NCBI GenBank assembly: GCA_030704615.1
Contig: CM060732.1
Span: 2,294,001-2,358,000, forward strand
Origin: Takakia lepidozioides
Taxonomy: Eukaryota; Plantae; Bryophyta
Length of the DNA: 64,000 bases
Direction of reading: 5' to 3'
The notes beneath the pieces are model-generated. The model ran no database searches. It saw only the letters and a list, made by a program, of their open reading frames with translations, and was not told where the DNA came from. Position numbers and translations under genes: made by a program. Below, piece after piece: positions 38,243 to 61,260 of the stretch; the stretch's first letter is position 1, and every line of letters begins with the position of its first letter.

Positions 38243-39692
38243 TAGCATCTACCCTGGCCCGGTGAGGCAGAACTGGCTGTCGTTGATGTTGCAAGGCACG
38301 GGGGCATTGGTATTGCGGACTTTACGATTTCATCTCCGGCCTTGTGCGTTGGCACCCACATACTCTCATTTGCTTGACGGCTTGAGCGGTGGAGCCCTGA
38401 TAGTGCAGGCGTCTGACTTGGTGATTTTGGGTCATGTGGGTGCTACGTTTGCAGCTCAACGGGTGGTTCATCCGTGTGCCTTTGAAAGTTTGAGTGATTA
38501 CCCTGTTTTGGCTGTGCTCTCACGAACGTGGAGGGAAGGTGACACCACCAGTGTGTGCTTTTGGGTCAAGAATGCCGAAGGTTGGGAGTGGTTGGTCTTG
38601 GGGATCTATGAACTATATTCGCACGAAGTGCTGAAAATCGTGTGCTACTCTACTTGGGTTCCAGGGACAAACTCGCCGCGCGCTCGACCTTCACTCCACA
38701 TCCCTGCTGCTTGAAGGTTAATTTTCCCAAGTTTGTTTTCATTTCTTGCATGCTAGGTAAATCCCAAACTGCTTGGTTGCGATCTGGTAGACAAAGACTC
38801 ATGGATAGTTCAAGGGAGCCGCTTGGTGAAAGTGTAGTCACCTGGGCCGGCATACCGCTCATAGTAGCCCGAATATCCGAGACTGGCCTGGCTACTCCCT
38901 ATATATGACCAGGACGGGAGGGAGTGTTGACCATACCAGGCACATTGACAAAATCCTAACCTTGTGATTGTACCGTGGGCTCACTACGTCCAGCCGCCAC
39001 GGCCACATCAGTCTGAACATAAACAGGAAAACTCGCTCGGTTGGCTACCCCAGACCCCTCGGGCAAAACAACAGAGCCTTATCTCTCAACCTCGCAATAA
39101 CACCATCATGCGACGGCTCTAGATCTCCCTCCAAAGCACCAGTGTTCAAAAAAACATCATTGGTCAAGACATTACATGCCTGCAGGTTGTCTGGGCTCTA
39201 ATGTAATGCATGTTCTTGTTGTGGGTCTCCCTAATCCCATTCGCGGGGGAGGGACTTCGTTGCCTGTGAATTCGGGTCTGCATGTAGGTAATACTTCTTT
39301 GTTAAATGTTCCTGGTCCTGTTGTAGGTGGAGGGGCTATGGTGCAGATGCCCTCCAGCTCATTCGTTAATCAGGCCCCTAATGCTAGCAACCATGTGGGG
39401 GCTCTCCAAGTCCAACAAACGGGGATGCCACCACAAGTTGTAGCCAGCCAGTCTGTAGGCATGCATGTTGGTAGTATTGGTAGTGTTCATGTTCATAACA
39501 TAGGGTCTGGATTAGTTCAGCCAGTGGGTTGGCACGCATTCCTCCCATGAGTGGAGTGCCACAACCCCACCTACAATCAGTCCGTCCTGTTGCTCAGCAA
39601 AGTGTGATGTCACATGCCCTCCCTATAGGCATGGTGGCATCGCATGCAAGTCTGCCACCTTCTACTGTTGTCTAGGGCCAGCCAGCCATGTT

Positions 39693-41951
39693 TTGGGTCA
39701 AAATGTTGCACCTGCCGCCAACAACATATATGCTGCTAATAGTGCCACTACTCACCCTCATAATGCGATACCATGTTGTCATGCTCATGGTTTGAACACT
39801 CTGAACAGTATGCATGGTCAACCCCTTTGTCATATGATCCCTCAGTTGACCACACAGCCTTATCCAAAATATGCTATGGGCAAGGATTTTGAGGAATATC
39901 TTCAAATGTTTGAAGTGATTGCTGATATGAATGGTGTGCCTGAGAATTTCAAGATAGCTATCTTTCGGATGAGCATGAAGGGGCTAGCTCGTGATTTGCT
40001 GCATGCAGCATGACCTCAATCTCAATTGGACATCTCTGGTGGAATGGGCTAAAACCTTGTTCAAACCTCCTGAGCGACCTTTGGGCTACCTTACCAAATT
40101 GGGCGCTGGGACTTACCAGCTAGGGGAGTCCTTGTGGAAGTATTACATGAACCTTAAATTTGCTACTACAGAGAATATCATTGATCCAGTAGAAAAGGAC
40201 CGCATGGTTAAGGTATACTTCCTCCTTGGAGTACTGCCCCCTGCTATTCAGAATTGGGCCCAATATCATAAGTTTGTCAATGATAAGACCATGCTAGCAA
40301 AGGTCAATCTTAAGATGGCAAACTTGGCTAACAGCAAAGAGTAAGAAAGCTGCCAGCAATTCATCCCCTCCTTTAAACTAGGGCGACCTCTTGGGAAGGG
40401 GGCAAGAGGTCCACCATCTACCAACCCTACCTCTCTTGTTCCAATGCAAGCTGTTTTGTACACTAACTTCAAGGCTTTGCATTGTCCGTTCAGTAGGCAG
40501 TCTGCAGGGCAGCAGATCAGCCCACTCATGGCCCAATGCCACATCCATGAGTTGAGCTTTCCCTGCATAGTAGACACGAGGTGTACTATATCTGCTATAC
40601 CTTTGAATGTTGTGCGGGTTCTTGGTCTTAAATTATGCCCTACCTCTGGTATTGAAGTATTGATTGCAGATAGATCTAGGTATGAGCCTCTGGATCTGGT
40701 TACTGTGCCAATCAGAATTCACAAGAAAGAGGTTGTGGTTACCTGCATAGTTACCATTGGAGATCAATTTCTACTAGATCTTGACTGGATGACTGGAGCT
40801 AGTGCCACCATCAGTCTGGCAGACTACTCCTTTCACTTTAACAATGGTGAGGGCCATGAAGTAGTTGTACCCTTAAAGACAGTGAAACTCAAGGCTGGGT
40901 CAGCCACTACCAATCTCTCCAGAGTGCAGGCCCTGGTAAAAGAGGTACAACAAAACTCTCACTCCAACCTCAATTGGAATGACTTTTACAAATTTCAGCC
41001 TGACCTTCAGCTTTTGTATCAATGGCATGTTCCTAGTACTGGTGGCAGGACAGGGGTGCCCATAGCAGTTCCCAGAAATTCTACGCTGATTCGTGCACCT
41101 GTCAACCCATTCCAAAGAGTGGTTAAATCTGGCATTGCCTTCCTGATAATAGATAGAGGTTATAGGCAGGAGGTTAAGATTTTAATTGCTAATCCTGAGC
41201 GTTTTTCCTGTGACTATTAAGAAAGGGCAGGTCTTGGCTCGCATTACTATCTTACCCCTTGCTGAAATACAAGAAGTACAAACCAGCTTTGGGCTGGAGG
41301 CCATTGGCATTCAACATGGCCCCATAGATGTTGTTGCTGCAATTGTGCCCAATTGTCATGGTTGGTAAGAAAGATGGCACTACCCGCTTTTGTATTAACT
41401 TCAGGAATCTGAATGACATCACCAAGAATGATGCCTACCCTCTACCCAGGATCAATGAGACCTTGGATCAGTTGCACGGTGCCATTATTTTCTCCTCTCT
41501 TGATCTTGCATTTGGTTTTTGGCAAGTCCCTCTCACTGATGCAACAAAAAAAAAAAACTTCATTTGTGTGTCGCATGGGCAAATACCAGTATGAGACAAT
41601 ACCTTTTGGTCTGTGCAATGCCACATCTACATTCCAACGCCTCATGGACATTGTCTTGGGTAATCTTCGCTGGGAGTGTGCCTTAATTTACGTGGATGAT
41701 ATTAATGTATACTCAGCCAGTTTTTGTGCTCACTTGACTGATTTGCATCGTGTATTCAGCAAATTGCGCACTGCAGGCCTCAAGGTGAAACCAAAAAAAT
41801 GTGAGCTGTTTATGCCTGAGCTACACTTTCTCGGTCATGTCCTATCCAAGGATGGTTTGCTTCCTGATCCTGCTAAGCTTGAATATGTTTGGGGCTTTCC
41901 TATTCTCAGGGATAAACATTACATCAAATCCTTCCTTGGTCTGGCTTCTTA
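39693..41951 (+). pseudogene. gag, aspartic protease, dUTPase-like and RT (N-terminal part) of the large gypsy element
   Basis: DFEEYLQMFEVIADMNG (gag); CIVDTRCTISAI (PR); IIDRGYRQEVKILIAN..IKKGQVLARI (dUTPase-like); KKDGTTRFCINFRNLN, DAYPLPRI, IPFGLCNA, YVDD (RT). Confidence 0.88.
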
Positions 41952-44900
41952 CACTACAAGAGATGAGCGTTTTTAGGACTACGGCTTTGGCGGAGTCATA
42001 AAAACTGCACTAGGTAGATGACTACAGAGCGCTGAAATGCATTGCAGTCATAGTTTTATGACTTTGTAGTAATGGATATCACTACATGACTCCGGAAAGT
42101 TAGGGAGCATTGGTCAAACATTGTTGACCATGATGACAAGGATGGTTTATATGACTAATGTGATATGTTTGACTACACGTGGACGACGTTTCATGGAATC
42201 TTATGACTCCATGACTGAAGATGGTTTCACAGCTCTATTTATACGACTACATCACTACACGTGTCATTTTGAAGGCACATATAATGAAAATAAGGTTGCC
42301 CATTAGGTTTTAAAAAGTTAAAAAATTGCTAATAAGGTTGCCCATTAGGGTAATCGTGAACAGGGCTGGGACTTGGCGTTTTTTTGTCTTCTGCGCCACA
42401 CCACATAGCCGAGGGATGGAACGCGATGATAGCAGGATATGCAGGGGCGTGGGATGGAGGCATTGAGCAAATGATGCACGAAGGAGAAGAGGAGGAGGAG
42501 ACGAGACGAGGAGAAGCGGGCTCGCCATTCTTGGGAGAGTCAGCTTGGTCTTAGCATGCGTGTTTCAATCTCTGATTACTCAGCTACGCCGTAGTGGTTC
42601 GATCTCACAGACCAATCCGACATTACCTAACTACAGACACAAGCAGCACACACAAGAGGTCCTTTTAGGTTGATGGTCGGTCAAATCCTCCATGGGTCAA
42701 GACAGGTCAAGGACAATGTGGTAGGGTACCTTCTTCTTCAACCTATTTCAGCCTGTGTTGCCCTCTCATCAGACTCGGCCGCAAGATGCATATTGAATTC
42801 TGTAAGTTAGGTCGTTGGGTAGATCTGTGGTGGTTTGGAGTGACTTTGGCAAGTTACTGCCATTGTGGCAGCATGGAAGTATCCAAAAACATATAATAGA
42901 GGTGAGGAGAAGCTTTGGGGTGAACACTTTCTGACCCCAGTCAATGGTGGGACAATGGAGACAAAAAGGCGAATGCCTGTTGGACTACAGAGAGAAGCAG
43001 ATGCATTTCAGATTGTGATAAGTAGGGTTGGGGTGTTTTGGGGAAGAACTCCACACCAGCATGGTTGGGGTGTTTGCTGGTAGAATTCTAGTCTGTCAGA
43101 GGCATGGATAGCTGAAGGAGCAGGGATAGAGTGTGGGTCCAGATTCATCCAAGAGGGCTGGATTTCAAGCTCCACATTACCTATGATTCCCTGTGGAAGG
43201 ATAGCTACAAGAAACCTACATGGGTAGATGGTCAACTGGAAGCGGCAGCAGTAGCGGCACAATTGATAAGGTCAGGCACTTCTACTGAAGGCACCTCCTT
43301 CAGCACATTTCACCCTGTTTTTCCCTCTTATCCGTTTCTTGCGAGCTGTCTTCTCTTATCTGTTTGTCTGCCCAGTCTTCAGTGAATGCGTCAAGGCTTT
43401 GTGTTTTGGCTTCTTCCTCGCTTTTGTCACCTCTCCCATGAATTTCTCTGGTTGGCGCTCAAACCCTGCTGAGCTGTAGATGTTGTCCATGCCAATGCAT
43501 TCTTCTTCACCAAATCCATGTTTTTGCCCTAAATCCTTGATGTCTTGGCTGGATTTCTGCAGAATAGGCATCCCATCCCCTATTTTGGCCTTCTTTGCAC
43601 TTCCCCGTGTCAACATGTTGATGTGGGGTGTTGTTGTAGTCTTATTGGAGTGTGATCACTTATATGGTATATCTCGTCCAACTCATCCAGTGCCTCCAGC
43701 TCATTATGAGTGAACTGACATGATACTTGTGCTGTTGGCTGCATCATGTACTCCGTGCTTGGCAATGGGTAAGCTTCTCCTCCTTCCACGTACTCATTGA
43801 TCACTGCAAAAGGTACTCCATACATCTTCCCTTGAGGTCCTGCCCCTTTTTTTGCTTCTGTGATTGTTTCAGCTTTGCTGAAAATTTGCTAAGACCCATG
43901 TTGGGTTAGTGTGTGATGACTGTGTCTCATGTTATTACAGATTTTGCACAGTGTTCTTTGTTTGGGCCTTCTGATGCCTTGTCTGATGGACTCAGGTTTG
44001 TCAAAATCAACTTGTATCCATCTGCTTCCATGTTGTTGCTGTCAGCAACTTGTTCTTCTGCCAGCTGAACCCCGACAGGGCCTGGGTCTTCCCTTCTGCC
44101 CGCATCAGAGCATTTCGCAATGTCTGTAGTTGCTTCATCCTTCCTCAACTCCGCCCTCTCTTTGGCAGGTTGCGCACCTTCACCACCTTTGTTGTTTTTT
44201 GATTTGCACATGGTATCTGCTGCTTGCGTATCCTCATTATAGTATTGAATATGTCCTGTAGGCATTGGCCTTACAAAGCCATTGTGCTCACTCTGGGTTT
44301 GGGTCATAGAACTTGGTCTGACCACTGTCTATTGATGCATCAGAGACACACCCATGCTGTTGCTTCCATTCCATCCCTCTGGGTTCTCTTTCCAATCACA
44401 GATCGGCCCTAAATTTCCATGTTGAATTCTGCAAGTTAGCTTGTCGAGTGAATCTAGTTTGCAGCGAGTTTGACATGATACTGCCAATGTGACAACAGGA
44501 AAGTATGTAACAGAGATGAGGAGAAGCTGTGGAATGGATACTTTTGTGACCCCAGTTTAACGATGAGACAATTGAGGTAAAAAGGTGAATGTCTGTTAGA
44601 TTACAGAGAGTAACGACGCAATTCAACATAGGAACTAGGGTCATAAGCTGAGTTGGGTGTCTAGGCTGTTATTGTCAGCTGCTAGCAGCAAGGCAAAGAT
44701 GAATGTATGATTTGTGCAGACGCATGGATAGTTGAAGAAGCAGGGATAGAGAGTGGGTACAGATTCTTCCAAGAGGGCCAGATTTCAAGCCCAAAATTAC
44801 CTATGATTCCCTGTGGATCAATAGCCACAAGAAACCTGCATGGGTAGATGGTCAACTAAAGGCAGCAGCTGCAGCGGCACAGTTGATAAAACCAGGCACC

Positions 44901-44969
44901 TCAACCGTGACCACAGCTTCTGGAAGTAAATCAAGAGAGGGAGTCCACAATGTCTCTTCTGGCACTTAT

Positions 44970-46270
44970 GGGCATGTGAAGATGCTTTGTGAGGCAGGCA
45001 GACTGACAGAGGCTCTACAGACTTTAAACCAAGGAGGCATTTCAGCAGATTCAAATACGTATGTCTGTCTCTTGCATAAGTGCATCAAGGTGAAAGGCCT
45101 AGAAGCTGAAAATCAGGTGCAAACTCACATTATCCAAAGTGGATTCATGCTAAATGTTTTTCTCCTCAACACCCTTGTCAACATGTATGTTAAGTGCGGG
45201 AGCATCATGGATACTCACCAAGTGTTCAACAGAATGCCTCAATGATCTTTGATCACGTGGAATATAATGTTGGGAGGATTTACCAAGCATGGATGTGGTA
45301 GGAATGCTTTGGAGACCTATGAGCAAATGATGGGGGAAGGGGTGAAGCCCGATCACATCACGTTTGTGTGCGTTTGCAGTGCATGTGCAAGCCTGGCAGC
45401 CCAAGAGGTGCATGGTGACATCGTCAGAGCTGGAATCGTACCAGATGTGATCCTGAACACTGCCCTGGTGGACATGTATGCCAAATGTGGGAGCATCAAG
45501 GATGCAAAGGGAGTGTTCAACAATATGGCTGAACGAAATGTGGTGTCGTGGAGTGTGATGCTCGCAGGGTATACACAGCAGGGGCGCGAGATGGAGGCTT
45601 TGGAGACGTATGAGCAAATGATGTGTGAAGGGATGAAGCCCGACCACATCACGTTTGTGTGCGTTTGCAGTGCGTGTGCAAGCCTGGCAGCCCTAGAAAA
45701 GGGCAAAGAGGTGCATGGTGACATCTCAGAGCTGGAATCGTACCAGATGTGATCCTGAACACTGCCCTGGTGGATATGTATGCCAAATGTGGGAGCATCG
45801 AGGATGCAAAGGGAGTGTTCAACAATATGGCTGAACGAAATGTGGTGTCGTGGAGTGTAATGCTTGCAGGGTATACACAGCAGGGGCGCGAGATGGAGGC
45901 TTTGGAGACGTATGAGCAAATGATGTGTGAAGGGATGAAGCCCGACCACATCACGTTTGTGTGCATTTGCAGTGCGTGTGCAAGCCTGGCAGCCCTAGAA
46001 AAGGGCAAAGAGGTGCATGGTGACATCGTCAGAGCTGGAATCGTACCAGATGTGATCCTGAACACTGCCCTGGTGGACATGTATGCCAAATGTGGAAGCA
46101 TCGAGGATGCAAAGGGAGTGTTCAACAATATGGCTGAACGAAATGTGGTGTCGTGGAGTGCAATGCTCGCAGGGTATACACAGCAGGGGCGCGAGATGGA
46201 GGTTTTGGAGACGTATGAGCAAATGATGTGTGAAGGGATGAAGCTCGACCACATCACGTTTGTGTGCATG
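44970..46270 (+). pseudogene. PLS-class pentatricopeptide repeat (PPR) fragment, tandem units of about 303 bp
   Basis: LNTALVDMYAKCGSIEDAKGVFNNMAERNVVSWSVMLAGY..GMKPDHITFVC..SACASLAALEKGKEVHG; stop at 45243-45245 and frameshift near 45725. Confidence 0.93.
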
Positions 46271-46976
46271 TGTCGTGCGCATACATATCGCTACACAACT
46301 ACATCGCTGTCCAAAACCACACAACACATGTGCACACCACACACTAGTATACCACTAGTCCACCACTAGTCCAACCACTAGTCCAACCACTAGGCTACAA
46401 CTAGTCAGTCACTAGGCTGCCACTATGCTGCCCACTATGGCAGTCACTAGTCCACACAATGATAAAGAAGAAGAATACAAGCACAAGCTCATGCGAGCTC
46501 ACAAAGCTGAAGCATAAACTCATGCATATATAACCTCATCACTCAAATACAAGTCAAGCCAAGTGCACCCCACGCCATGGGGAATCCACACTACGGCGCC
46601 ATAGCTAGGCGCGGTGAGGCTCAACTCGAGAAAGATGAGCCTTCCGCGCTTGCCGTGAAGATAACCACTCCAGGGCCTAAATCTGCCTTGACCCCTGGAT
46701 TGACACTTGGGCCAATCCCAAATGTCAATATGTAAAAGCTAGCTATTTCCTAGCTAGTTTCACACTAGTGGTAAAATAACTTGACAGCTGTCGTGCGCAT
46801 ACATATCGCTACACAACTACATCGCTGTCCAAAACCACACAACACATGTGCACACCACACACTAGTATACCACTAGTCCACCACTAGTCCAGCCACTAGT
46901 CCAACCACTAGGCTACAACTAGTCAGTCACTAGGCTGCCACTATGCTGCCCACTATGGCAGTCACTAGTCCACACA
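46271..46976 (-). repeat. 3' terminal repeat block of the DNMT3 element (on the minus strand: A-gc-B-A)
   Basis: The two 188-bp A copies differ by about 1 nt; the 327-bp B matches 56290-56616 with about 5 mismatches. Confidence 0.92.
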
Positions 46977-47236
46977 ATCGCCCCCCTAGCTGGTGCTTAG
47001 GTCCCTCTAAGTCCAGGTAGCCACAAGATGTGATAGTGACCATAGCCTCACTAAGTCCTCCACCACTATCCCTACTACACTCAAACTCGATAGATCAAGA
47101 GGCCGGGTGCAAGAGTTGCCCCATCGTTAGTCGCCGTCTTGCAACCTGTGAACTTGAGCTTGGGATCTCATGTATTGACTCCTATGAGCTTGGCCTCCCA
47201 TGTCTTGTTAGCTGCCTCCAGTCATGTCCACTGCCA

Positions 47237-48606
47237 CTATCCCAAGCAGTGTGGACACAACCAATCTCCGTCAGGAATCTTCTCAAGAGGTGGTGTCAAG
47301 CATCCCATATGCCAACCCCTTGAGCATCGATCACACACCAGCATGGTGGCTGCCCCTTTGGCAGATCCACAGAGCATGCACCTCAAACCTGCAGGTACCA
47401 CTGCCAAGTTTGGGTCAACTCTGCCATCGACATTGGGAAGGTGACATGGCGCACAATTACGCACATGGTCCTTCCAAGTCATGCCATCCCGACCCTCTAA
47501 GATCAGGACCCCTGAGGGCAACACCTCTCGAACCCTCAGAATAACACGCCCTGCAGTAACATCCAGAGTCGTAGGAGCAGTCTGCTGCAAATAAACATAG
47601 TCACCAGGGCTAAACCTCCGAACCCCAGGACGATATCCTCCACCACGTATAGTGGCATACCTCAACGTATCACGGTGCTGTGCAATGGCAAGGTTCTCAA
47701 AAGCCATGGGCATGACTTTCTTGAACAACTCTGCACGCTGATCACATGCACGTACCCACACGTCCGGATCGTCAAGGTTAAGGACTTGAGCAGTGTCCCT
47801 ACGAATGGTTGCAGGCAAATCCGGCTCTCGGCCAAAGAGAAGGAAATATGGTGAGAAGGAGGCAAGTGATGCTTGTTTGCTGAACCTGTAGCCCATGGCT
47901 AACCAAGGAACCTGAAGATCCCAATCTCCTAGGTGTCCCTTCTGCAAGCCATACTTGCGCAAACCCCTCTTCACCGTCTGAACAACTCTCTCTGCCAAGC
48001 CATCGGCCTCAGGATGATCCCGAGAAGTGGTGCGGTGGTCTATCAAGGCTTTATCACACAAAGCCTGAAACTCCCCAAGAACTCTCTCACTTGGTCCGTG
48101 AGTACCTCAGCTGGAGCACCAAATCGGCTAAGCACACGATCCAAGAATGCATACGCAGCCCCCTCACTAGCCTTGTCAGGCAATGGAACCAACTCAATCC
48201 ACTTGGAGAAGTGCTCCACCATCACCAATACATATATGTGGTGGCGCATAGTCAGTGGCAACGGTCCTGCGAAGTCAAGACTCCACCTGTAGCCCAATCC
48301 CATGATTGGTAAAGGATGCAACTGTGGTGTAGGGGCGTTGAATAAAGCACGCACCCTGTCACACACCATGCACCTAGCCACGAACTGTTGCACCTCTGTA
48401 TGCATACCACGCCACCAATACTGCCCCTGCAGTAAAGTGTGAGTGCGTCGCACTCCAAAATGCCCCAACTCCTCATGGGCATGCCGCACTAACCGTGCAC
48501 GCTGTGTGGGGTGAGGCACAATCCTCACCCGACCATCCTCCCATGCGGAGGTAGTCCAACACAGCCGAATCCTCATGTATATCTCTGGCACCACCTGGCT
48601 CATCAC
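47237..48606 (-). pseudogene. Retroviral-type integrase (HHCC and DDE core) with C-terminal PHD finger
   Basis: HEELGH..CMVC; WSLDFAGPLP, VLTDQ, HPEADGLAERVVQTVK; PHD CMLC..CDRC..H..C..WLCPHC at about 47240-47380; one frameshift near 48050-48090. Confidence 0.92.
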
Positions 48607-49309
48607 TAGCCTCAGGGTCCTCAGACACTCCGTCTACAGTCATCCCTGTTGTAGGTCCAACCTGACCTCCCGATGCCAAGATACACAAAAATGCAGATGC
48701 GTGCCATCCCGACACCATCTCCTTGTCCGTCTCACCATGCCACCGAGCTCCAATGTCATCCTGCTGGCTCGTGCATGGATTGCGACTCAATCCATCCGCA
48801 TCCCGATTGACCAAACCCGGTCGATGCACAACCTGAACATGTCTCTCATGCTCCTCCACCGTAGCACGAGAGACAAAGCAATTCATGTAAGCCTCAGGAA
48901 CCGCCGTATACGTCGTCTCTCTCCTCTAGTGACAATAGGTCCAATGTCAGGCTCCCAATTGCCCTTTGTAACTGCAACCTTAAGTCCAGTAGACTTAGAG
49001 GTAGAGGGCGCGTCCCGTGGTTGCTATGCCGAAACCTCTTGAGTAGTACTCCCTGCCTGCTCAGTCAATGACAAGGTCTCATCCTTGAGGACCTCCTCAA
49101 CCTGAGAAGAATCCCCAACCTCATCCATCACAGCCGCCTTGGCTGCCAACTCCCTCTGAACCTCGAGCACCTCCCACGTGTGCCATGAATGCATGCACCC
49201 CGTGGTCCTCACATGCTCGCCCCCACTCACTGCCTGTACCGTCTCGGTAGGCAAAGAGACCATCAAGGGAAGTGTACTCCGCACTCTGTGTTGCTCAGCC
49301 AGAGCCAAG

Positions 49310-50260
49310 CTGATAATCCAGGTCAAGCAATTGAGATCCATTGCTTGCCCCAACACTTGACGACGTGATGCCTCAGAAAGAGACGACACCGCCGTGGTAC
49401 CAGTGGTAAAACCCTTTGCCCGCTCACGCTCGTCAGCATTAGGCTCCACTAACTGCTGCAACTGAGCATCCCACAGGAGGCCAGGTCCACTATCCCGGAA
49501 AACATGCGATCCTGGGAAGCTGAGCAGTGTAGGTAATGCTGCTCGTGGTTGACCCACCTTGTTGACCACTGCTAAAGGCGAACGGTCATCGTGTCTCACA
49601 CGCTGAGACTGCCTCCCTGTGTCCAAAATGTTATCCGCTGTGAGATGTGCTGGCCGCTGCACCCCATCAAATGCACGCTTGAGCAGTGCGGGTGGCATCA
49701 AGTTAGTCCACCATAGCCGGGACAATGAGCCCGTGACCCCACTGTAGCTGCATCTAGCAACACTGTTGACCCAAGCCACGACCGGACTTGATGCACACTG
49801 GCCATCACCCTGGCCCGAGAATCGCCCATCAGTGGCACATTCTCCAAGATGTATGCTGGAGATACAGCTTGATGAAGCTGCAAGTGGCGCAAAACCCGCA
49901 CCAAAACAGACCCGACCTCGAGTCTCGCAATCCATTGCCATGCCCGGCTGATGAATGCCCTTGGCAAGGCCAACCTGCCACTACCAGATCAATGGAGCCA
50001 ACCCGCTCCAAATCCTGCGCCCCCAGCAACGAAATGTCTGCTGGCAAGGCCTGCTGATATCCACAAATTGCAGACACCGACAACAACTCAGGGTACCGCT
50101 GCACCAACTGAGCAACATGGCGAAGTGAAACGCGTCGTGCAGTCTCATCCCTCTCCACATACAAGTAACACCGAACTCGTACACCTGCTTGTAACACAGC
50201 AGCCAATCCGGTGCTGATCCCGCCAAACAAGTCCAGAAGACAAATGCCTTCATCCGGATA
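49310..50260 (-). pseudogene. DNMT3-like C5 cytosine methyltransferase domain (frameshifted)
   Basis: Motif I LLDLFGGISTG; motif IV IDLVVAGWPCQGHS; motif VI YILENV; motif VIII region DAATVGSRAH..RLWWTNL; motifs IX-X ERERAKGF..SRRQVLGQAM. Confidence 0.9.
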
Positions 50261-50679
50261 CTGCCACACAATAGGTGTGGTGTCCAATGGAGACAATTGA
50301 GGTGGTCCTGGTGCAATCCCCACACTCTCCTCCTCTCCTGACGGTACAAAAGCCTCCACCCAGGCTTGTTGCACCCGTCTATCAGCATCCCGCTGCAAAT
50401 CCTTGCTCGTGCCCCACAATGGAGTCTGAGCAACCATGGTAGACAACTCCGCCATACCATACATGTCATCCTGCTCTCCCGGAGGTGGTACATCCTCTGA
50501 ATGAGTATTGCCCTCAAGCAACTCTCTAGACCAACTCACTGCCACTGTGAATGCTGCTAGTGTCGGCATCTTGCCTCGCTGGGCAACCGCAACTCCTCCT
50601 ATGAACGTCACAGGGAGCTGCACACGCCGGCCCTCCCCTGACTGCCATGCAGGCCTATAGGAAGCTGACTCCTCCCAAA

Positions 50680-50990
50680 AATCCAGGGTGAAGCCCATGG
50701 GGTACAACACTGCCCCACCAACCAGGACATCGTATGAGACCGCGTCTGTCACAATGGCCTTGGCTCGCATCACTGAGCCATTTGTAGGGTGATCCGGCCG
50801 TAGTCTGATAGCCAACTCACGCCGTGTCATGCCCTGAGCTTGCTCCGATCCTCCCAGAGACGTATGTATCTGGAAAGGACAGGGCTCCATATCGGCCTCC
50901 GTGAGGCCCAAGCCTGCAATATCAGCTCTGCCCAGCATTAGTGGCTGAGCTCCCGAGTCCAACAAGACCCGCAGTGGCCGGTACCTCTTG
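50680..50990 (-). pseudogene. Retropepsin-like aspartic protease, in frame with the MTase N-terminal half
   Basis: RVLLDSGAQPLM and YDVLVG in ORF 49829-51334. Confidence 0.85.
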
Positions 50991-51542
50991 CCTGCCGGTC
51001 CACTCAAACAGAAAATGCCATCCTGGTTGTCTAACATGACAACTCCAGGTGTCACCATGGCGCGCTCAATGGCTGGCCTAACGGACAGCTCCATCAACCT
51101 GGCAGCTGCAGCTTGCCATGGCGCCGCCGTGGCAGTCTTGACCCTCAAATCCGAGGATCCCTCCGACACTACACCTCCCACTATCTCCGCAGAAGATGAA
51201 GTAACCTCCCCACTCTCACAGAGTGTAGCTGCCAGCCTGAACACCTCAGCTGGTCTTACCCCCGGCGTCGCAATCATGGTAGCCGAGAACAATGGAGCCT
51301 GGCAGCACACTAGCTGCCGTAGCCTTGACAACACTAGGTAGTGGTGCTACCCGTGTAGTTCTCCCCAATGGCATAGTAACCTCCGCCTCGGTAACAGTCG
51401 GGCGAGAACTAGGTGCCATGGATGGCGTCGACACTGTCTCCGCCAATGTGAATGACTGAGGAAGCCTAGCCTGACGGCTTGCCTCCCCACGCTGTGGATC
51501 CAACTCCACCTCTGCATCTCGTGGCTTAGGAACTCGTGCTGC

Positions 51543-53036
51543 TCATCGAGTCACGGCTGCAGCAGACTCCACCTGCACTAGTGGTAGTGCTGCTCCACAC
51601 ATGAATCCCATGCCTCCCATATCTCCTCCCTTAGGAGCAGGAGGTGGACCATCCGGCCTTAGAGCCGGTACCACCTGGGCTGTAGCCATGGCAGCGAGCC
51701 TCTGCTCTAGCTGCTGAAGCCGGTTGGCCATGCCTTGGTCAACACCCTGACCTCCGCATCCTTGGCCATGTTGAGCTTGCCCTTGGCGTGCACCTTGTGG
51801 CTGGCCACCTCGTCCTCTCTGGGTTGCTCCACCTCGCCCCCGGCCACCATTGTTCCCTTGGAACTGGCCTGGGCGCAACTCAGGATGCAAACCATAACAC
51901 TGGGCCTCTCCATGCCCGTGCTTGCCACAATGCCTACACTGCAACTGTGCAGGCTGTGCATGTGTCCATCCTTTGCCTCCCTCTGGACAATCCTTCTTGA
52001 CATGGGGTCCTCCACATGTCCAGCACACCACCTCCGTCCGTTGTTGGCCAGCAAATGAAGGGAGAGACCCCTGCATCTGAGGTCCTCTCTGCCCTTCCCT
52101 GAGCTTCACTGAGCCCCTTGTTTGCCTTGAGCACGTTGAGGTAGTGGTTGGCTAGGAGCACCACTACCCCGTGGTGTCTCCTTAGCAAATCCCACCATGA
52201 CCACTCGTTCCTCCGCCATGTTGAGCTCTATCCGCTCTGCCAGCAAAAACACATTTGCTAAGGTGGGTTGGGCCGCTTGTAGGAGAGTTGCATCCCGCAC
52301 CCTTCTCCTCAGCTCCTTGTCCAATATCCATACCAGAATTGGACTGCCTGAGCTTCCGTAACCCCTGGGTTACATTTATCAAGCGCCTCATGCGAGTGAA
52401 AGCCTCCCTCAAGCTCTCGGTCGGCTTCCGTTGGAACTCTTGCAAGCTCCGCAACTTCTCTGTCCTCACCCCTTCGTAGTTCCCTCTCAACTCTTCGAAG
52501 AACTCCACAACAGGATTGAAGGCAGGCACGGGTACTAGTGCTGGTGCGGTAGTGGTTGGGTGGACGTCGTAGCTACTGTACCACCAGTCCCACTAGTCCC
52601 TCTGCTACTACTGAAGTTGCCGGTGCAGCGGCAGGTGTAGCCACTGCCCTCGTGGCTCTAGTGCCCCTAGTGATGGAGACATAGTCGGGTGACTAGTACA
52701 TCCTCCACTCCTCAATCTCAACCCCATGCCCCGCCCTGAACTCATGGTAATCATCCATAGGCGACCCCTCAAGGTGCTGAAACAGCCCTTTCCATGCCAT
52801 GAACGGCGTAAATAGTTGTGGATTGCGCATTTGCTGCAAATCACACCAACTATCAAACTCTTGGATAAAATCATCCAACTCGATGGTGCCCACCACCCCA
52901 GAGTACCTTCGTGGCCCCTGGTAGCTCCATACATCTCCTCCATTGTGTCCCACAACAATGGCAAAGAAACAACTTGCACCGCCGGTATGAGTCCTCCTGA
53001 TTCACAATCCGAATCAGAACCTTCCGTGGAAGACAC
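51543..53036 (-). pseudogene. gag with two zinc knuckles
   Basis: LDDFIQEFDSWCD, LQEFQRKPTESLREAFTRM, CWTCGGPHVKKDC, CRHCGKHGHGEAQC; frameshifted. Confidence 0.88.
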
Positions 53037-53869
53037 AGGGTGAAGGTGGCCTTAAACCGCACACCTCGTCTCGTGTAACCCACTAGTATCGCTAGTGCTC
53101 GAACCGGCACTGTCCCCAGCAACTAGGGGCACCTCCGTATTGACACTCACACCGGTAATGAACATGTCCCTAACCCCCTCTCCACAAGGTAACGGGTAGG
53201 GGTAGAGAACCTGTTGCGGCTTATGGTTTGGAATACTAAGTTCCTAACATAGCCTACACCTGTACCTGCATCCACCGCAAGCACTCCTATGGTTGGCTGG
53301 TCATCACCTCCAACCTCACCACAGAGAGAAACAATGATGGTCTGGCTGGTCATCACCCCAGCCTCACCATCGACAGCATATCTAGGACTGGCCGGTGATC
53401 AAATCCGGACCAATCACCTATAAAAACAAGCGCCCAAACAAAACTAGCATGGCGCACAGTCAACCATGCAGGTATGGAGGGCGATACAAACACAAGAAAT
53501 TGAACGACAACTCCCCCCCACCAAAAACAACTCCACGGTGTTGCCCCTGCAAGGACACCCCAGCCCAAACCCAGACTGACTCTTGCCTTTAGACCTACGG
53601 AAAGGTCTTGGCCTAATCGAGAGGGTGGAAACTACGAGGAAGAGAAGCTAAAGCAATGCCTAACCCCAGCATGCCTCATCCCAACACTCTTCCTCTCCTC
53701 TCTTCCTCACTTGCATGACCATGGGAGTATCATGAAGATACTCCTCATACCGCCCTCCACGAGCTTCAAAATTCGGCCTTCCAGACAACATGCCAGTCCT
53801 TAGGCAGTCCACAGTGCCTCCACGAGTAAGCACAGGCCGTCCACAGGTCAACACGGGCCACCAACAGAC

Positions 53870-54850
53870 CAGAAAGGCCCACACAGCTCACTGGGCACAA
53901 AGCCTGTCACAACCCTCAAAGCCCGTTCACAGGCTTGCCACAGCCTGTCACAGCCCGTCACAGACCCACACAGACTGTCACAACCCGACAGCCCGTCACA
54001 GGCCCCATAGGGGGCACGCGGGACAGCGTCACAGCCCTCACAGCCCGTCCCAGCTCGCCACAGCCCCTCACAGCCCAAAAGGCCTCAGGCAAGGCCTGCA
54101 CAGCCCCTCACAGCTCGTCAAAGCCCCAAGGCCATGGGCACAGCCTGTCACTGTCACAAGCCCCCTCACAGCCCCAAGGCCACGGGCACAGCCTGTCACA
54201 GCCCCTCACAGCCAGTCACAGCCCACATGGCCACTGGGCACAGCCTGTCACAGCCCGCACAGCCCGTCACAGCCCCACAGGGCATGGGCACAGCCTGTCA
54301 CAGCCCCTCACAGCCACAAAAGGCCACGGGCACAGCTGTCACAGCCCCGTCACAGCCCGTCACAGCCCCACAGGCCACTGGGCACAGCCTGTCACAGCCC
54401 CTCCACAGGCCCAAGGCCACGGGCACAGCCGGTCACAGGGACCCTCACAGCCCCCGTTGGTCACAGCAACACAGGCTCAGGCAAGGCATTTGAAACAGCC
54501 CTGCACAAGCCCATCACAGCCCCCAAAGGCCCTCCTGCCGGCCTGTCACCGCCTCACAGCCCGTCACAGCCCTCAAAGCCTCAGGCACGGCAGATACACA
54601 CCCCTCACAGCCATCACAGCCCAAAGGCCTCAGGCACGGCCGTCTCCAGACCCTAAGACCGGTCACAGCCCCACAGGCCACTGGGCACAGCCTGTCACAG
54701 CACCGCACACACCATCAAGCCCCAAAGGCCACTGGGCACGGCTTCTTGTCACAGCACCGCACAGCCCGTCACAGCCCCAAAGGCCTCAGGCACGGCCTGT
54801 CACAGCCCCTCACAGCCCCTCACAGCCCAAAGGCCTCGTCACAGCCCCAT
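53870..54850. repeat. Degenerate minisatellite (GTCACAGCC / CACAGCCC motifs) in the leader of the DNMT3 element
   Basis: Dozens of CACAGCC-containing units over about 1 kb. Confidence 0.9.
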
Positions 54851-56289
54851 CCATGGCCGCTCTAGCAGTTTAGCCATTTCTCCAAGGGGTTTAGCCACGC
54901 CAAGCTAGGGTTTGTGTCTCTTGGACTCTAGGCTTCTTTCCACGAGCTATGGCGGCTGTGAGGAAATCAACAAGGTATTCTTGCTCTTTCGGCTCCCACA
55001 CACCACCATAGTAGCCCTAAGCCATGAGGTGGTTGCCACAAACCAAGCCTTCTTTCTCACTTAGCCTCCCCAAACACGCCACTAAACTCAATGGCAAACA
55101 ACCAAGCCCTGCTGGTTTCCAGCCCTTGTGAGCACTCATTCAAGCACTCTCCTGGGCCATAACATCTGTCTTAGAGCCTATTCCAGCCCCTACACCTGCT
55201 GCTTCAAGAGTTGCGCTCCCTTCAAGCTTGAAGTTGAAACCCCAACTCACATAGGCCCTACAAGTGCTTTTCTTTCACTCCAAGTGGAAACCAGCCCTAG
55301 ACCTTCCGTTCTAGCTCTCTAAAGCTTGAAAACAAGAGCCTCAATGGGCTGAAGGCATGCTCCACACATGCCCCACTCTCACCATAAGAGAATCAGCTCC
55401 TTTACTTCATTTCTTGCACCCACAAACCTGAAAGTGCAAGCCTTCATCAGGATGATAGCATGCTCCACACATGCATTGCCCTCGCATAAGGGAAGTCAGC
55501 CCTTCCCACTTCCTTGCTTGCCCTCCAAGCTTGAAGATGGAAGCTTCAATGAGCTGAATACATGCTCCACACATGCAACCTCTTCACACAAGAGATATCA
55601 GCCCCCTATCTTGGCCTTGGCTCCTTGATGCTCTCTAAGACAAGACTAAGCACTCCACAGCCTTTGCCAAGCTCCTGAAACCCTAAGGCTTACATTTCCA
55701 GCCACAAGACACTTCTCTTGTGGTGCAAGAGCTCTTCTTCCAAGCTCTGAAACCCTAGGTGCACATTCCATGCCCTTGCCGCACCTCTTAGCTCCTGTTC
55801 CAGCCCTGCTCTTGCCATGACAAGAGCCCTCTCAATGCTGAAGCTCGAGATTGAAACCCAATCTCACCATACTCCACAAAGTGCACTGATTTGCCCCAAG
55901 CCAAATCAGCCCTTTCGCTTGGTCTTGCAATCCTTCACACAATGAAAGCTCGCATTCCCAAGTCTAGTTCTCAGCTTTGCCACCAAAGCCACTATAACCT
56001 GCTCTTGACTGGTCCTCTTCCCAATCGTGCTTGCTCATGCATGTACACAATCTGAAACCATCAAGGTGCTCTGGAATTACCTGCAGCATGGTGCTTTCAT
56101 CTCTGAAGCTAAAGATCGAATGCCAAGGTCTACCACCTCGTAACCCACATCGCCTCCGCTTCTAACAACCAAAAGCTCCACGGTGCTCCTTGCATAACAA
56201 CTTGGTTTCTCTCATTCTCAAGCAAAAACCACAAGTGCTACAACTAACTCGTATTTGGCACTCACAGATACGAGCTCATCTTTCTCGAG

Positions 56290-56616
56290 TAATAAAGAAG
56301 AAGAATACAAGCACAAGCTCATGCGAGCTCACAAATCTGAAACATAAACTCATGCATATATAACCTTATCACTCAAATACAAGTCAAGCCAAGTGCACCC
56401 CACGCCATGGGGAATCCACACTACGGCGCCATAGCTAGGCGCGGTGAGGCTCAACTCGAGAAAGATGAGCCTTCCGCGCTTGCCGTGAAGATAACCACTC
56501 CAGGGCCTAAATCTGCCTTGACCCCTGGATTGACACTTGGGCCAATCCCAAATGTCAATATGTAAAAGCTAGCTATTTCTTAGCTAGTTTCACACTAGTG
56601 GTAAAATAACTTGACA
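56290..56616 (-). repeat. 5' terminal repeat (B) of the DNMT3 element
   Basis: Matches 46460-46786; begins TGTCAAG on the minus strand. Confidence 0.92.
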
Positions 56617-57600
56617 CGTGTGCAAGCCTGGCAGCCCTGGAAAAGGGCAAAGAGGTGCATGGCGACATCGTCAGAGCTGGAATCATACCAGATGTGATCC
56701 TGAACACTGCCCTGGTGGACTTGTATGCCAAATGTGGGAGCATCAAGGATGCAAAGAGAGTGATCAACAATATGGTTGAACGAAATGTGGTGTCGTGGAG
56801 TGCGATGCTCGCAGTGAATGCACAACAGGGGCGCGGGATGGAGGCTTTGGAGACGTATGAGCAAATAATGTGCGAAGGGGTGAAGCCCGACCACATCACG
56901 TTTGTGTGCACTCGCAATGCTTGTGCAAGCTTGGCAGCCCTGGAAAAGGGCAAAGAGGTGAATGGTGACATCATCAAAGCTGGAATTGTACCAAATGTCA
57001 TTCTGAACACAGCCATGGCAGCTCTGGAAAAGGGCTTGCAAAGAGGTCCATGGCGACATCATCAGGGCTGGAATTGTACCAAATGTCATTTTGAACAATA
57101 CCCTGGTGGACATGTATGCAAAATGTGGGTGCAGGAGCAAACATGTATGTTAAGTGCATGAGCATCATGCATGCATGCTCATGAAGTTTTCAACAGAATG
57201 TCTCAATGATCTTTGATCATGTGGAATAAATGTTGGCAGGATTTACCAAGCATGGGTGTGGTAGGAATGCTTTGGAGACCTATGAGCAAATGCTACGCGA
57301 AGGGGTGAAGCCCAACCACATCACGTTTGTTTGTGTGTTGCAATGCGTGTGCAAGCCTAGGACCTCTAGAAAAGGGGAAAGATAGAGGTCCATGGTGACA
57401 TCATCAAAGCTGGAATTGTACCAGATGTCATTCTGAACAGTGCCCTGGTGGACATGTATGCGAAATGTGGGTACATTAAGGATGCGAAGGGAGTTTTCAA
57501 CATTATGGCTGAACGAGATGTGGTGTCATGGAACGCGATGCTTGCAGGGTATGCAGAGCAGGGACATGGTATGGAGACCTATGATCAAATGATGGGGGAA
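56617..57600 (+). pseudogene. Continuation of the PLS-PPR fragment after the retroelement insertion
   Basis: Resumes CASLAALEKGKEVHGDIVRAG..MYAKCG; more decayed units. Confidence 0.9.
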
Positions 57601-59205
57601 GGGGGCACCTTCTTCAATAGCTCACAGCGGCTACAAGTGGGTAGATGGTCAACTGGAAACAGCAGCGACAGCAGCACAATTCATAAAACAAGGCGCTGCT
57701 AATGAAGGTACCTTCTTCAACATATTTCATCTTGTTTTCCCCTGCTATCAGAGTCGTCCCTAAATTTTTAATGTTGAATTCTGCAAGTTAGCTCGTTGGT
57801 GGATCTATGGTAGTTTTGGAGTGATTTTGACATGTTACTGCCAATGTGATTGACAGGAAAGTATTGAAAAATAGATAACAGAGACTCGAGGAGAAGCTCT
57901 AGGATGAATACGTTCCTGACCTCAGTCAATGGTGGAACAATCGAGGCAAAAGGTGAATGCCTGTTGGAAGCAGACGCAAGTCAACATAAGAACTAGTGTG
58001 ATAAGTAGGGTTGGGGTGTTTGCTCAAGCAATTCTAGGCTGTCATTGTCAGCTGCTAGCAGCAAGGCGAGGATGTATGCATGATTTGTGCAGGGGCATGG
58101 ATAGCTGAAGGAGCAGGGATAGATGTGTGGGTCCAGATTCATCCAAGAGGGCCGGATTTCAAGCTCCATATTACCTATGATTCCCTGTGGAAGGATAGGT
58201 ACAAGAAACCTGCATGGGTAGATGGTCAATTGGAAGCCGCAGCAGCAGCGGCACAATTGATCAAATCAGGCACTGTTAATCAAGGCACCTTCTTCAACAC
58301 ATTCACCCTGTTTTTCCCTCTTATCAAATCGGCCGTAAGTATTGCACTGTTTAATAGGGTCCTTGATTCTAGTAGCACCAGAACAAACTAATATTACAAC
58401 AATTCAGCCCATGTGTGGGCTTGCTTATTTTTTGTTTACTGGACCTTTCAGGCATGGATTTTTGGACCTTGTGGCCTTTGGGGTGTCCATTGGGACATTG
58501 GTCTCATTTGGATTTTTGTAATATAATTTACAGGGCGTGTATTTCCCTGTACTTGTCTTTTTTGAATGTCCTTGTGGTTGCTAGTATGCAAGAGGGGTCC
58601 ATTCCGTTTTTATATCATAATTTCACCATATAATGAAGAATTTAAATCATTTAATCTATTTTTATTTTATATAACATTATTAAATTAAACAATAATACCA
58701 TTGAATAAAAATTCCAAGCTGCTATCCCCTGTTTTCAAAAATAAAAATATAAATTTAAGAATTTAAAATTACAAATATAACTATTAAATTATTTTCAGAG
58801 ACATTCTTGATGACACGTGGCATAAACCCTGCCATATATGCTAGTCATATATTATGTCTAAGTGCCACATGTCACATCTGAAGTGCAACAGGCGTCGTGA
58901 CGTGTCGCTTGCGCAGTGGTGCACGTGTTCCTCTAAAGCCTCTCCATGTAGGCAACACTCATCAGACAATGTAGTCATATAATTAGTCATATGTAAGTCA
59001 TAGAGTTGTAACTACATCACTCTCTTATGCATGACTCCAGGTGCCACGCACGCGGTCACGGCTATGACTTGCAAAATGCAGTCCTAAAGACTAGTCGCTA
59101 TGACAAGGTTTTTTTCACTATAGAGTGATGTAGCCATGAACGCATATAGGACTGAAAAAATAGTCATATGTGCAGTCATAAAAACGCTCATCTGTTGTAG
59201 TGTTA

Positions 59206-61260
59206 TTATATGCGTTTCATCAAAAACTTTGCAAAACTTGCTCACCCTCTAACCAAGGTCTTGTGCAAAGATGCCCGGTTTGAATGGACCTTCTCCCAGC
59301 AAGCTACATTTGAATCCGATGTTGCTATTTCTGCAATCTTGTGTCAAGTTGTAGAAGACAAAGAGCATGTGATAGCCTATGCCTCCCGCCGTCTCGATCG
59401 TCATGAGCGGAATTATTCCATATCTGATAAAGAGGGTCTGGCCCTGGTCTTTGGTGTGAAACATTTCAGGCAGTATTTATATGGTAGCCGGTTTGTGGTA
59501 CAGACTGATCACCTTCCACTAAAAGCTCTTGTTAAGCCAAGGGAGCTTCATGGCAGACTTGTTAGATGGGCTATGTACGTGCAGGAGTTCAACATGGATA
59601 TAGTCTACAAGAAGGGCAATGAAAATACAAATGCTGATGCACTTACTCGTGTTGATCATCCTGTTAGCAGGCCTATGCTCACCTTGGTTGACCTTGCTGC
59701 TGCTGATGCAGCCCATCTTTTTTATCCAGCTCCTCTTCTCAACCTCCTTTGTGCAGATCAGCACCCCTTGGCCTTGGATTCTCATGGCATTTTTGGCTAC
59801 TTGGGGCTGGTCTAGCCTTCTTGATGATCCTGGTTGATTTGTTCATGTGTTAGTGTGTATGGTGGATCTATCGCTTTAGAGAGAATTTGGATAGTTTTGT
59901 CATGTTCCAGCTCTTTTCTTTCCTAGGCTCCCAAGTTTGTTGTAACTCAGCTGCTGCACTCCGGTGTGGCTATTGGCTTGAGCTTCAAGGCCTGATTTGG
60001 CTGTCCACGAGTAGTAACAAATCAGGTGAAGGTATATCCCTGGCTGGAGATATTAGGTGTAGGCACTCTAGACCACCTTCTCTAAAGCCCATTGTCTATC
60101 TCTTATGTGCAGTGCAGTCATGGATGATCAGTTACATGTTGCGCTACTCCAGCGATGCCAATCAGGGCATTCGTCAGCTGGCTTTTCCGAGTCCTTGCGT
60201 AAACAAATTCTCTATCATGTGTCTACTCACCGTTTTATGGGTGCTAAGCTGTTCAAGGAACTCGCTCGAGGGGAGTGTCATGCTATTTGGAGGTGCCACC
60301 ACGGAGCCAGCTGAATGTTTTATTGGAGTGTTTCCATTGTTCCATGTATGCAGGTCACCTTGGCAAGAAAACCGTGGCCCGCATCCAAGAGGTTTACTAT
60401 TGGCTGGGGATTCACCGGGATGTCACGAAGTTCATCTCTAAGTGTGAAGGTTGTCGTGCTAACATTGCTCTCCCTAGGGCCCGGATTTTGTATGAGCTGC
60501 AGCCTTTGCCTGTTACACATGCTTTTGCTCGTGTTGGCGAGGTGTTGGCATTGACTTGGTAGGACCCCTCACACTGATCATATCAAAGGGTCGAAGCTAC
60601 CTTTGTGTTGCTACCGACTACTTGACTAAGTGGGTAGAAGTCCGGCCTTGGCGTACCAAGGGTAGTGATTCTGTAGCTCAGTTCTTCTTCAATGAGATCC
60701 TTATGTGATATGGGTGTCATTGGGAGATACTAACAGATCAGGGCAAAGAGTTTGTAACCATCTCCTCACGCTGGTATGCTTCAATTTTGGTGTCAAGCAT
60801 TCCACCACAGCCCCATACCATCCCGAGACCAATGGCCTTACGGAACGCTTCAACCAAACTTTTTGCCGAATGTTGGAGAAGAATGGCGCACTTACCAGGG
60901 AGTGGGATACCTTTCTTCCCCCTATTATCTTTGCTTATCGCACCACCGTGTATGCTAGCACTAAGAAGACTCCTTTTGAGTTGTTGTATGGTCGCAAATG
61001 TGTTTCTCCTTTGCATTCTACCCCTCTCATCTCTACTGTTGTTGATCCGGTTGATCTTGATACCTTTGTTGAGGATCTTCATGCTTGGCATGCGGTATCT
61101 ATCCACGATGCCAAGATGAACATTGGTAAGGCTCAGCTAACCCAGGCCCGCAATTTTAACAAGCGTGTCAAGTATTCTAACTTGTTTCAGGTCGAACAAA
61201 CCGTGTGCATTCGGCTTCAGCATGGTAAGCATGCATGCAAATCTAAATTCAAGATCGACG
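59206..61260 (+). pseudogene. RNase H and integrase of the large gypsy element
   Basis: VIAYASRRL..RNYSISDKEGLALVFGVKHFRQYLYG..TDH..NTNADALTR; H..GH..CEGC; TDYLTKWVE; YHPETNGLTERFNQT. Confidence 0.9.

Follow-up and report, generated by a model that had tools for sequence, protein, structure and literature searches.

A decayed Ty3/gypsy retrotransposon with a DNMT3-like methyltransferase domain in the bryophyte Takakia lepidozioides

A Dnmt3 cytosine methyltransferase domain has been described in the Gypsy polyprotein of KnitGypsy-Dnmt3, an element with DIRS-like repeats from the alga Klebsormidium nitens, and in the retrotransposon polyprotein of SymbioDIRS-Dnmt3 from the dinoflagellate Symbiodinium, which also has A-coding-B-A-B repeats, encodes a tyrosine recombinase and is regarded by the authors as of independent origin (de Mendoza et al., 2018; PMC5890265). 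Later work, in its available text, places Gypsy-DNMT3 only in 'streptophytes' (PMC12344493; bioRxiv 10.64898/2026.05.21.726589), and the second of these reports states that they are distinct from its own EpiLTRs and DAM-LTRs, Gypsy-like elements that likewise combine a methyltransferase with a chromatin reader but use an adenine methyltransferase and a DNMT4-sister enzyme together with a chromodomain. Here we describe a Ty3/gypsy element in the bryophyte Takakia lepidozioides (NCBI GenBank assembly GCA_030704615.1, contig CM060732.1, positions 2,294,001 to 2,358,000 of the forward strand, a stretch of 64,000 nucleotides that we call the window). Judged by its domains and relatives, it is a broken member of a repeated Ty3/gypsy family that encodes its own DNMT3-like cytosine methyltransferase.

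KnitGypsy-Dnmt3 is the closest known element, as judged by its published description. As described in the available text of PMC5890265, it shares with the Takakia element and its relatives the Gypsy domain set, including a DDE integrase after reverse transcriptase (RT) and RNase H (RT in the relatives only), an intronless, unpermuted Dnmt3-like polyprotein domain with catalytic residues kept, A-coding-B-A-B repeats despite that integrase, and purifying selection. It differs in its algal host, and its acquisition is treated there as specific to the K. nitens lineage. A PHD finger, leaky stop, self-priming site, target duplication and internal integration site are absent from that text; relative to it, what appears new is the wider host range together with the leaky stop, PHD finger, predicted self-primer and predicted inner integration site. 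A literature search returned no report of Gypsy-DNMT3 in land plants, although figures and supplements may include land-plant sequences, and found the name 'KnitGypsy' in one paper only. A first-pass annotation of this locus had described dinoflagellate retrotransposon methyltransferases as DNMT5-type; the same published text instead gives a Dnmt3 in SymbioDIRS and an orphan DNMT in SymbioLINE, Dnmt5 being found there as exon-rich host genes (PMC5890265).

The methyltransferase is read from three pieces in three frames of an element that lies on the minus strand (all coordinates are those of the window). Open reading frame (ORF) 49829-51346 (minus, stop to stop) holds the protease motif LLDSGAQ and methyltransferase motifs I (LDLFGGI) and IV (GWPCQ) in a single frame and matches PF00145 at E 8.8e-7, above the Pfam cut-off; its protease match is weak (PF13650, E 0.012, below the cut-off). 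ORF 49698-49988 carries motif VI (ENV) and the beginning of motif VIII, and ORF 49024-49980 carries RLWWTNL, ERERAKGF and RRQVLG; neither of these later pieces matches a Pfam family individually. In tblastn a Marchantia relative runs collinearly along the three pieces, each in its own frame, with identities of 54-73%. The same collinear alignment over all three is given by six uninterrupted domains of related loci, and the alignments contain no intron gap. Both the protease-methyltransferase fusion and the unpermuted order of motifs I-X across two frameshifts, as first proposed, are thus borne out.

The class assignment of the first-pass annotation, DNMT3-like rather than DRM, CMT or MET1, also stood. 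A profile built from the six uninterrupted family domains gave 71 bits for DNMT3A (56-71 for DNMT3A/B/C chains), 29-36 for DRM-type chains, 30 for HhaI and 22-27 for DNMT2, with no DNMT1 or CMT chain among the matches listed at E<=1, and motifs I, IV-VIII and IX-X of the profile align to DNMT3A in order. Foldseek with a model of the relative P0001, whose mean predicted local distance difference test score (pLDDT) is only 50, returned DNMT3 complexes in every listed row to rank 50. Among the matches listed in a protein search of the family, one alone, a fish protein with PWWP and ADD-type domains, has the architecture of a host DNMT. With phmmer, the C-terminal piece alone gave chance matches only against the Protein Data Bank (PDB), and the top match of the N-terminal piece on its own was a DRM-type chain, at an E value (0.002) too weak for classification. 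DRM identity was rejected on the unpermuted motif order and the lower profile scores. Among the protein chains and structures listed in these comparisons, DNMT3 is the nearest class to the domain, ahead of DRM, DNMT1/MET1/CMT, DNMT2 and bacterial enzymes. The host enzymes PpDNMT3a/b likewise have an unpermuted DNMT3-type catalytic domain in non-flowering plants, but carry, in the available text, a C-terminal DUF3444 (PMC6453930), whereas the element domain lies in a retrotransposon frame and a Pfam search of the element gave no DUF3444 match.

The element spans 56616-46271 (10,346 bp) and interrupts a PPR gene, with PPR Pfam matches on both flanks. Its parts follow in the order A1, long leader with a short-repeat array, broken gag, protease, methyltransferase, stop, RNase H remnant, integrase, PHD finger, purine tract, B1, two bases, A2 and B2:

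56617-56620, minus: left target-site duplication, CACG on the minus strand, inside the PPR gene (end comparison; PPR Pfam matches either side)
56290-56616, minus: repeat A1, left element end, begins TGTC, probable promoter/R/U5 half of the long terminal repeat (LTR) (4 mismatches in 325 aligned bases against A2)
56455-56470, minus: 16-nt segment complementary to the primer-binding site, predicted 5' self-primer (pairing and fold test)
56274-56289, minus: primer-binding-site-like sequence immediately 3' of A1, without a tRNA-type start (16-bp perfect pairing, controls <=7; fold z -6.6)
53830-54870, minus: degenerate short-repeat array in the long 5' leader (repeat families D5, D8, D9, D16)
51261-52926, minus: gag, split over several frames (weak Retrotrans_gag and zinc-knuckle matches)
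50651-51046, minus: aspartic protease, LLDSGAQ (weak Pfam match; domain order in relatives)
49901-50251, minus: DNMT3-like methyltransferase motifs I-V, same frame as the protease (PF00145, E 8.8e-7)
49725-49904, minus: middle part of the methyltransferase, from motif VI (ENV) into the beginning of motif VIII, following frameshift 1 (ORF list and alignment to relatives)
49294-49722, minus: methyltransferase C-terminal piece, remaining motif VIII, target-recognition region and motifs IX-X, after frameshift 2 (ORF list and alignment to relatives)
49018-49026, minus: stop in a read-through-type context (TAG CAA CCA), end of the Gag-protease-methyltransferase frame (stop plus CAR at the same place in 26 of 28 in-frame loci)
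48837-48892, minus: internal deletion site, RT and most of RNase H gone (one contig about 1.3 kb longer between the flanking places)
47672-48525, minus: DDE integrase, H2C2 finger and rve core, single frameshift near 48070 (Pfam and relatives)
47237-47380, minus: PHD finger at the integrase C-terminus, then a stop (PF00628, E 3.2e-11)
46978-46991, minus: polypurine-tract-like run, almost identical in relatives (comparison with relatives)
46789-46977, minus: repeat B1, terminates GACA, probable U3 start (1 mismatch in 190 against B2)
46783-46792, minus: palindromic B1/A2 junction GACA-GC-TGTC, an internal copy of both element ends (end comparison)
46460-46786, minus: repeat A2, terminates CA, blunt join to B2 (repeat alignment)
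46271-46459, minus: repeat B2, right element end, terminates GACA (repeat alignment)
46267-46270, minus: right target-site duplication, CATG on the minus strand, 3 of 4 bases as on the left (end comparison)

This copy is dead, with frameshifts and about 1.3 kb of RT and RNase H lost, and it cannot make the enzyme; a domain search of the element found no RT or RNase H match anywhere in it. In sequencing run X12, perhaps an RNA run, a contig matches 48892-49380 and 48544-48837 and carries about 1.3 kb extra between them, the length that RT and RNase H together occupy in relatives; contig loose ends coincide with both methyltransferase frameshifts, which together indicate that other host copies differ from this one at these lesions. 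About 80,000 short contig records of sequencing run X1, which may derive from the source sample, align to the element, a number that is not a copy number (nor are contig depths at the element) but that points to a highly repeated family. The integrase ends in the PHD finger and Pfam gave no chromodomain match in the element, a departure from the chromoviruses.

The methyltransferase lies between protease and RT in other copies too. In a metagenome scan, from which the best 80 of 337 confirmed related loci were kept without deduplication, the protease is upstream of the methyltransferase in 60 of 62 loci with enough flank and RT is downstream in 35 of 39. A protein search with the protease-methyltransferase region returned 25 long proteins, among them 15 from Marchantia polymorpha (annotated as hypothetical proteins), one from Sphagnum fallax and one from Closterium; in several of the 25, PF00145 is joined by RT, RNase H or integrase. 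The domain profile matches 420 protein clusters (50% identity) at E<=1e-30; among the best 150 cluster representatives, 53 show the domain alone and the others either the protease-methyltransferase-RT order or an RT-RNase H-methyltransferase-integrase-PHD order, the latter complete in 30 of the 150. Organism names, taken from 30 looked-up proteins and further searches, add Calypogeia, Sphagnum compactum, Mesostigma (protease-methyltransferase), Scenedesmus (RT-RNase H-methyltransferase-integrase-PHD) and Haematococcus, and the matches listed in the family searches include no Klebsormidium-named protein. The first-pass view of a land-plant lineage therefore holds only in part: land plants do carry relatives, but on the sequences found this kind of element is not restricted to them, streptophyte algae and chlorophytes carrying it as well. 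A quick tree of 43 rows, with a fish DNMT3 as the only host enzyme, groups the Takakia domain with sequences of Marchantia, Calypogeia (74% identity) and Sphagnum fallax and with moss-family loci (SH-aLRT 98 for this clade), and unites Calypogeia, S. compactum and L077 in a second bryophyte clade. The same methyltransferase is found between RNase H and integrase in a sister group (P0025, P0087 and 60-odd cluster representatives) named only in Scenedesmus. With two positions in the polyprotein, the domain must have moved within it at least once.

Two single matches stand apart. P0272 shares 94% identity with the L050 domain and lies on a 2.4-kb contig; its label assigns it to a genome bin of Candidatus Obscuribacterales, but it is likely mis-binned eukaryotic DNA. 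P0224, a 1198-residue match annotated with RNase HI (PF00075) and not with Gypsy RNase H, may represent a DIRS-like element with a related methyltransferase. The viral contigs searched held no relative of the element.

The first-pass annotation had placed the methyltransferase inside pol, whereas a conserved stop after it (49026-49024 in Takakia) puts it at the end of the Gag-protease frame. Among 37 loci with both a methyltransferase end and an RT start, 9 with a frameshifted linker were set aside, and in 26 of the remaining 28 the linker has, always at the same place, a TAG or TAA with CAA or CAG directly after it. The context is TAG CAA CCA in Takakia, TAG CAG TTA in L050 and L055, and CAA CCC after the stop in most moss copies. 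In L050 this single stop separates a 1369-codon Gag-protease-methyltransferase frame from a 1047-codon RT-RNase H-integrase-PHD frame in register with it. The wider leaky-stop consensus is CAR YYA. In plant viruses, CAA UYA after a leaky UAG gives read-through of 11-32% in planta (PMC2754532, available text). We infer that the methyltransferase is made with every Gag and that RT and integrase are made only by read-through, an arrangement that predicts abundant enzyme in the particles.

Comparisons between lineages show purifying selection on the methyltransferase. For the pair L050 and L055, the methyltransferase has a ratio of nonsynonymous to synonymous substitution rates (dN/dS) of 0.12, against 0.13 in the protease and 0.07 in RT (dS 0.2-0.3; 0.26 for the methyltransferase), and between the Takakia domain and moss-family loci the nonsynonymous and synonymous difference proportions (pN and pS) are about 0.20 and 0.74. 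Even in decayed loci the catalytic cysteine is kept in 65 of 67 and the motif VI glutamate in 53 of 64, with the motif VIII arginines kept in 38 and 42 of 64. Moss-family methyltransferase and integrase trees are poorly resolved and agree only on the deep split among the window, L050 and L077, so co-evolution is not claimed beyond that split; the distance correlation of the two domains is 0.64 over 28 loci, duplicates included. Three outcomes that had been set in advance as fatal to the first-pass proposal (a one-off capture, no purifying selection, no PF00145 match) did not occur.

The ends of the element are unusual for an LTR retrotransposon. A1 and A2 differ at 4 of 325 aligned bases and B1 and B2 at 1 of 190, and the DIRS-like layout A-internal-B-A-B is present here and in relatives, whose common end motifs are an A that begins TGTCA, a B that terminates CACGACA and an inner junction GACA-2 bases-TGTCA (with a non-palindromic spacer in L050). 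A 4-bp target duplication flanks the 12 distinct insertions for which both ends are present; its two copies agree fully in 9 of them and differ by one transition in 3. A DIRS or Ngaro identity was rejected on this duplication and on the rve DDE integrase in place of a tyrosine recombinase, and two nested elements with LTRs A and B were rejected on the shared layout and end motifs of the relatives. Since B directly follows a conserved purine tract and A precedes the primer site, the true LTR would be B+2 nt+A. The sequence right after A1 pairs with the middle of A over 16 bp in the Takakia copy (controls <=7; fold z -6.6) and over at least 9 bp in 18 of 26 A1 copies, with different sequences in the Takakia copy, the moss family and L077, and reverse transcription is probably self-primed as in Tf1, on an RNA whose start is predicted near 56470 in the Takakia copy. 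The Tf1/Sushi and Tcn1 Ty3/gypsy elements, which self-prime from post-LTR sequence that pairs with their own 5' RNA, likewise lack a tRNA primer site; in the available text they are chromoviruses with ordinary LTRs (PMC6317226), in contrast to the PHD finger, split repeats and methyltransferase of the Takakia element.

The ends of inserted copies correspond to the inner junction, and the join of A2 to B2 is blunt, as that of a 2-LTR circle would be. The integrase would then act on the inner GACA-nn-TGTC site of the LTR rather than on the cDNA tips, and a 2-LTR circle opened at one such site would give A-internal-B-A-B. B precedes A in 0 of 21 distinct left ends, leaving the conventional form with two full LTRs unseen, and right ends show B alone in 12 and B then A in 6 distinct insertions; the A-internal-B forms may come from recombination between B1 and B2 or from collapse in short-read assembly. 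The foamy-virus DDE integrase has been reported to cut a palindrome at the abutting ends of 2-LTR circle junctions (PMC1180852, available text). That palindrome is the LTR-LTR junction itself, whereas the cut site here would lie within the LTR and leave the blunt A/B junction intact. In L026, L027, L042 and L077 the TG of the inner junction has changed to TA, but TG is intact at the outer left end, a pattern that host methylation of the inner CAG/CTG site would be expected to leave.

The locus is a dead, RT-deleted copy of a Ty3/gypsy family with the order gag-protease-DNMT3-like methyltransferase-leaky stop-RT-RNase H-integrase-PHD. As the most likely role of the enzyme, at about an even chance, we propose that it methylates the element's own new cDNA before integration. 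The methyltransferase would be synthesised at Gag level and RT-RNase H-integrase-PHD by read-through of the stop; the protease would probably free the methyltransferase inside the particle, where it could methylate the new cDNA ahead of integration, so that pre-methylated copies would enter a methylated genome resembling host DNA or already muted. Reverse transcription would be self-primed, and integrase would then attack the internal GACA-nn-TGTC site of a 2-LTR circle. SymbioDIRS-Dnmt3 performs de novo CG methylation in yeast, and cDNA methylation is its authors' own hypothesis (PMC5890265, available text).

Several observations weigh against this reading or parts of it. The Klebsormidium enzyme gave no methylation in yeast, a result termed inconclusive by its authors in the available text (PMC5890265). 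The element shows no special loss of CG, with a CG observed/expected ratio of 0.52 against 0.23, 0.44 and 1.06 in three neighbouring gypsy remnants and 0.46 in the window, and no protease cleavage site was identified in the polyprotein. Among recent moss-family copies (22 decayed loci), the methyltransferase dN/dS of 0.66 is the highest of five domains, the others ranging from 0.35 to 0.59 (RT 0.39, integrase 0.45, protease 0.59), a mix of neutral decay and perhaps weaker constraint, and dS between the window and its relatives is saturated, which makes those ratios rough. The CAA CCC context of most moss-family stops departs from the plant-virus consensus CAA UYA (PMC2754532, available text). 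Finally, a circle opened at either inner site should also yield A-B-A-internal-B, seen in 0 of 21 distinct left ends, and the integration step is therefore incomplete as stated.

An unlikely alternative is that the enzyme acts at or after integration, travelling with the integration complex and methylating the target region while the PHD finger reads unmethylated H3K4, much as animal DNMT3 does with its ADD domain. The PHD finger is kept in both domain orders, the second order puts the methyltransferase beside the integrase (30 of 150 representatives), and the best PDB matches of the finger are those of CHD4, KDM5 PHD1, PHF12, ATXR5, PHF21A, AIRE and UHRF1, several of which are readers of unmodified H3 tails. 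In the Takakia lineage, though, the enzyme sits in the Gag frame, away from the integrase.

It is distinctly doubtful that the methyltransferase instead serves integration itself, binding or methylating the GACA-nn-TGTC junction and shielding one of two LTR junctions from integrase to give A-internal-B-A-B. The site holds a nearby CG and CAG/CTG on both strands, A-internal-B-A-B is the only form with terminal redundancy, the ends are as asymmetric as this idea would have them (A at every left end; B alone or B-A at the right), and methyltransferase and split repeats co-occur in the Takakia copy, the moss family, L077 and KnitGypsy-Dnmt3. The proposal is nonetheless conjectural throughout, the A-internal-B forms may stem from B1-B2 recombination or short-read assembly collapse, the L050 spacer is not palindromic, and such a role is not needed for the layout, since Symbiodinium DIRS have A-B-A-B repeats with a tyrosine recombinase.

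We consider it improbable that the element carries the domain along as an old passenger on which selection has relaxed, or retains it for a structural or DNA-binding function without catalysis, although the top-ranking dN/dS in recent moss-family copies, the inactivity of the algal relative in yeast (PMC5890265, available text) and the missing CG footprint would suit that idea. Against it are the L050/L055 ratio of 0.12, equal to that of the protease, the retention of the domain at two polyprotein positions, and catalytic motifs kept across the 420 clusters (the motifs themselves were checked only in the loci). There is almost no chance that a dead element picked up part of a host DNMT3 gene in a single event, or that the locus is an assembly chimera, even though this copy is badly damaged for terminal repeats that are only about 1% apart: the same order recurs in dozens of loci and in named genomes, contigs from independent runs include the domain, one of them linking it to RNase H and integrase, and intron gaps and a match to DUF3444, a domain of plant host DNMT3s (PMC6453930, available text), are both absent.

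The rest of the window is rich in other repeats. The interrupted PPR gene, which we take to be of the P-L-S class, flanks the element at 45133-46270 and 56617-57703 (plus strand) as a tandem gene of about 300-bp repeats, itself broken by stops and frameshifts. A 194-bp repeat is present in three copies (43131-43324, 44751-44944 and 58125-58318); two lie immediately upstream of PPR pieces, and the repeat may mark where duplicated genes begin. Other Ty3/gypsy remnants lie at 1-1450 (plus), 3861-4277 (minus), 39500-42000 (plus) and 59200-61100 (plus), one with a chromodomain (PF00385), and tblastn found no methyltransferase match in them. A piggyBac-like DDE transposase occupies 8983-10932 (minus) in two pieces (PF13843, E 3e-54), with inverted repeats farther left that are not linked to it, and a LINE-like 3' fragment family in both orientations extends over 14186-29318, with an RT piece at 18825-19319. 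No tRNA gene was found in the 64-kb window.

Why a transposon would carry a host silencing enzyme has been a question since 2018; for Gypsy elements the case came from a single alga, and the enzyme of that element showed no activity in yeast (PMC5890265, available text). The presence of relatives in Marchantia polymorpha, which has genetics, methylation mutants and methylomes, makes the role testable. Finders that require two terminal LTRs would miss elements with such split ends, the methyltransferase pieces of these elements can be miscounted as host DNMT genes, and the end structure points to an integration route without explanation in the available text of the accounts compared here. A broader and rather unlikely reading is of an ancient lineage spanning green plants from chlorophytes to bryophytes, with a working DNMT3 packed at Gag level, tRNA-free self-priming, integration through an internal LTR palindrome, and a methyltransferase that chooses the surviving junction in a restriction-modification-like logic. 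If that reading were true, these elements could be an extra source of de novo methylation in non-seed plants.

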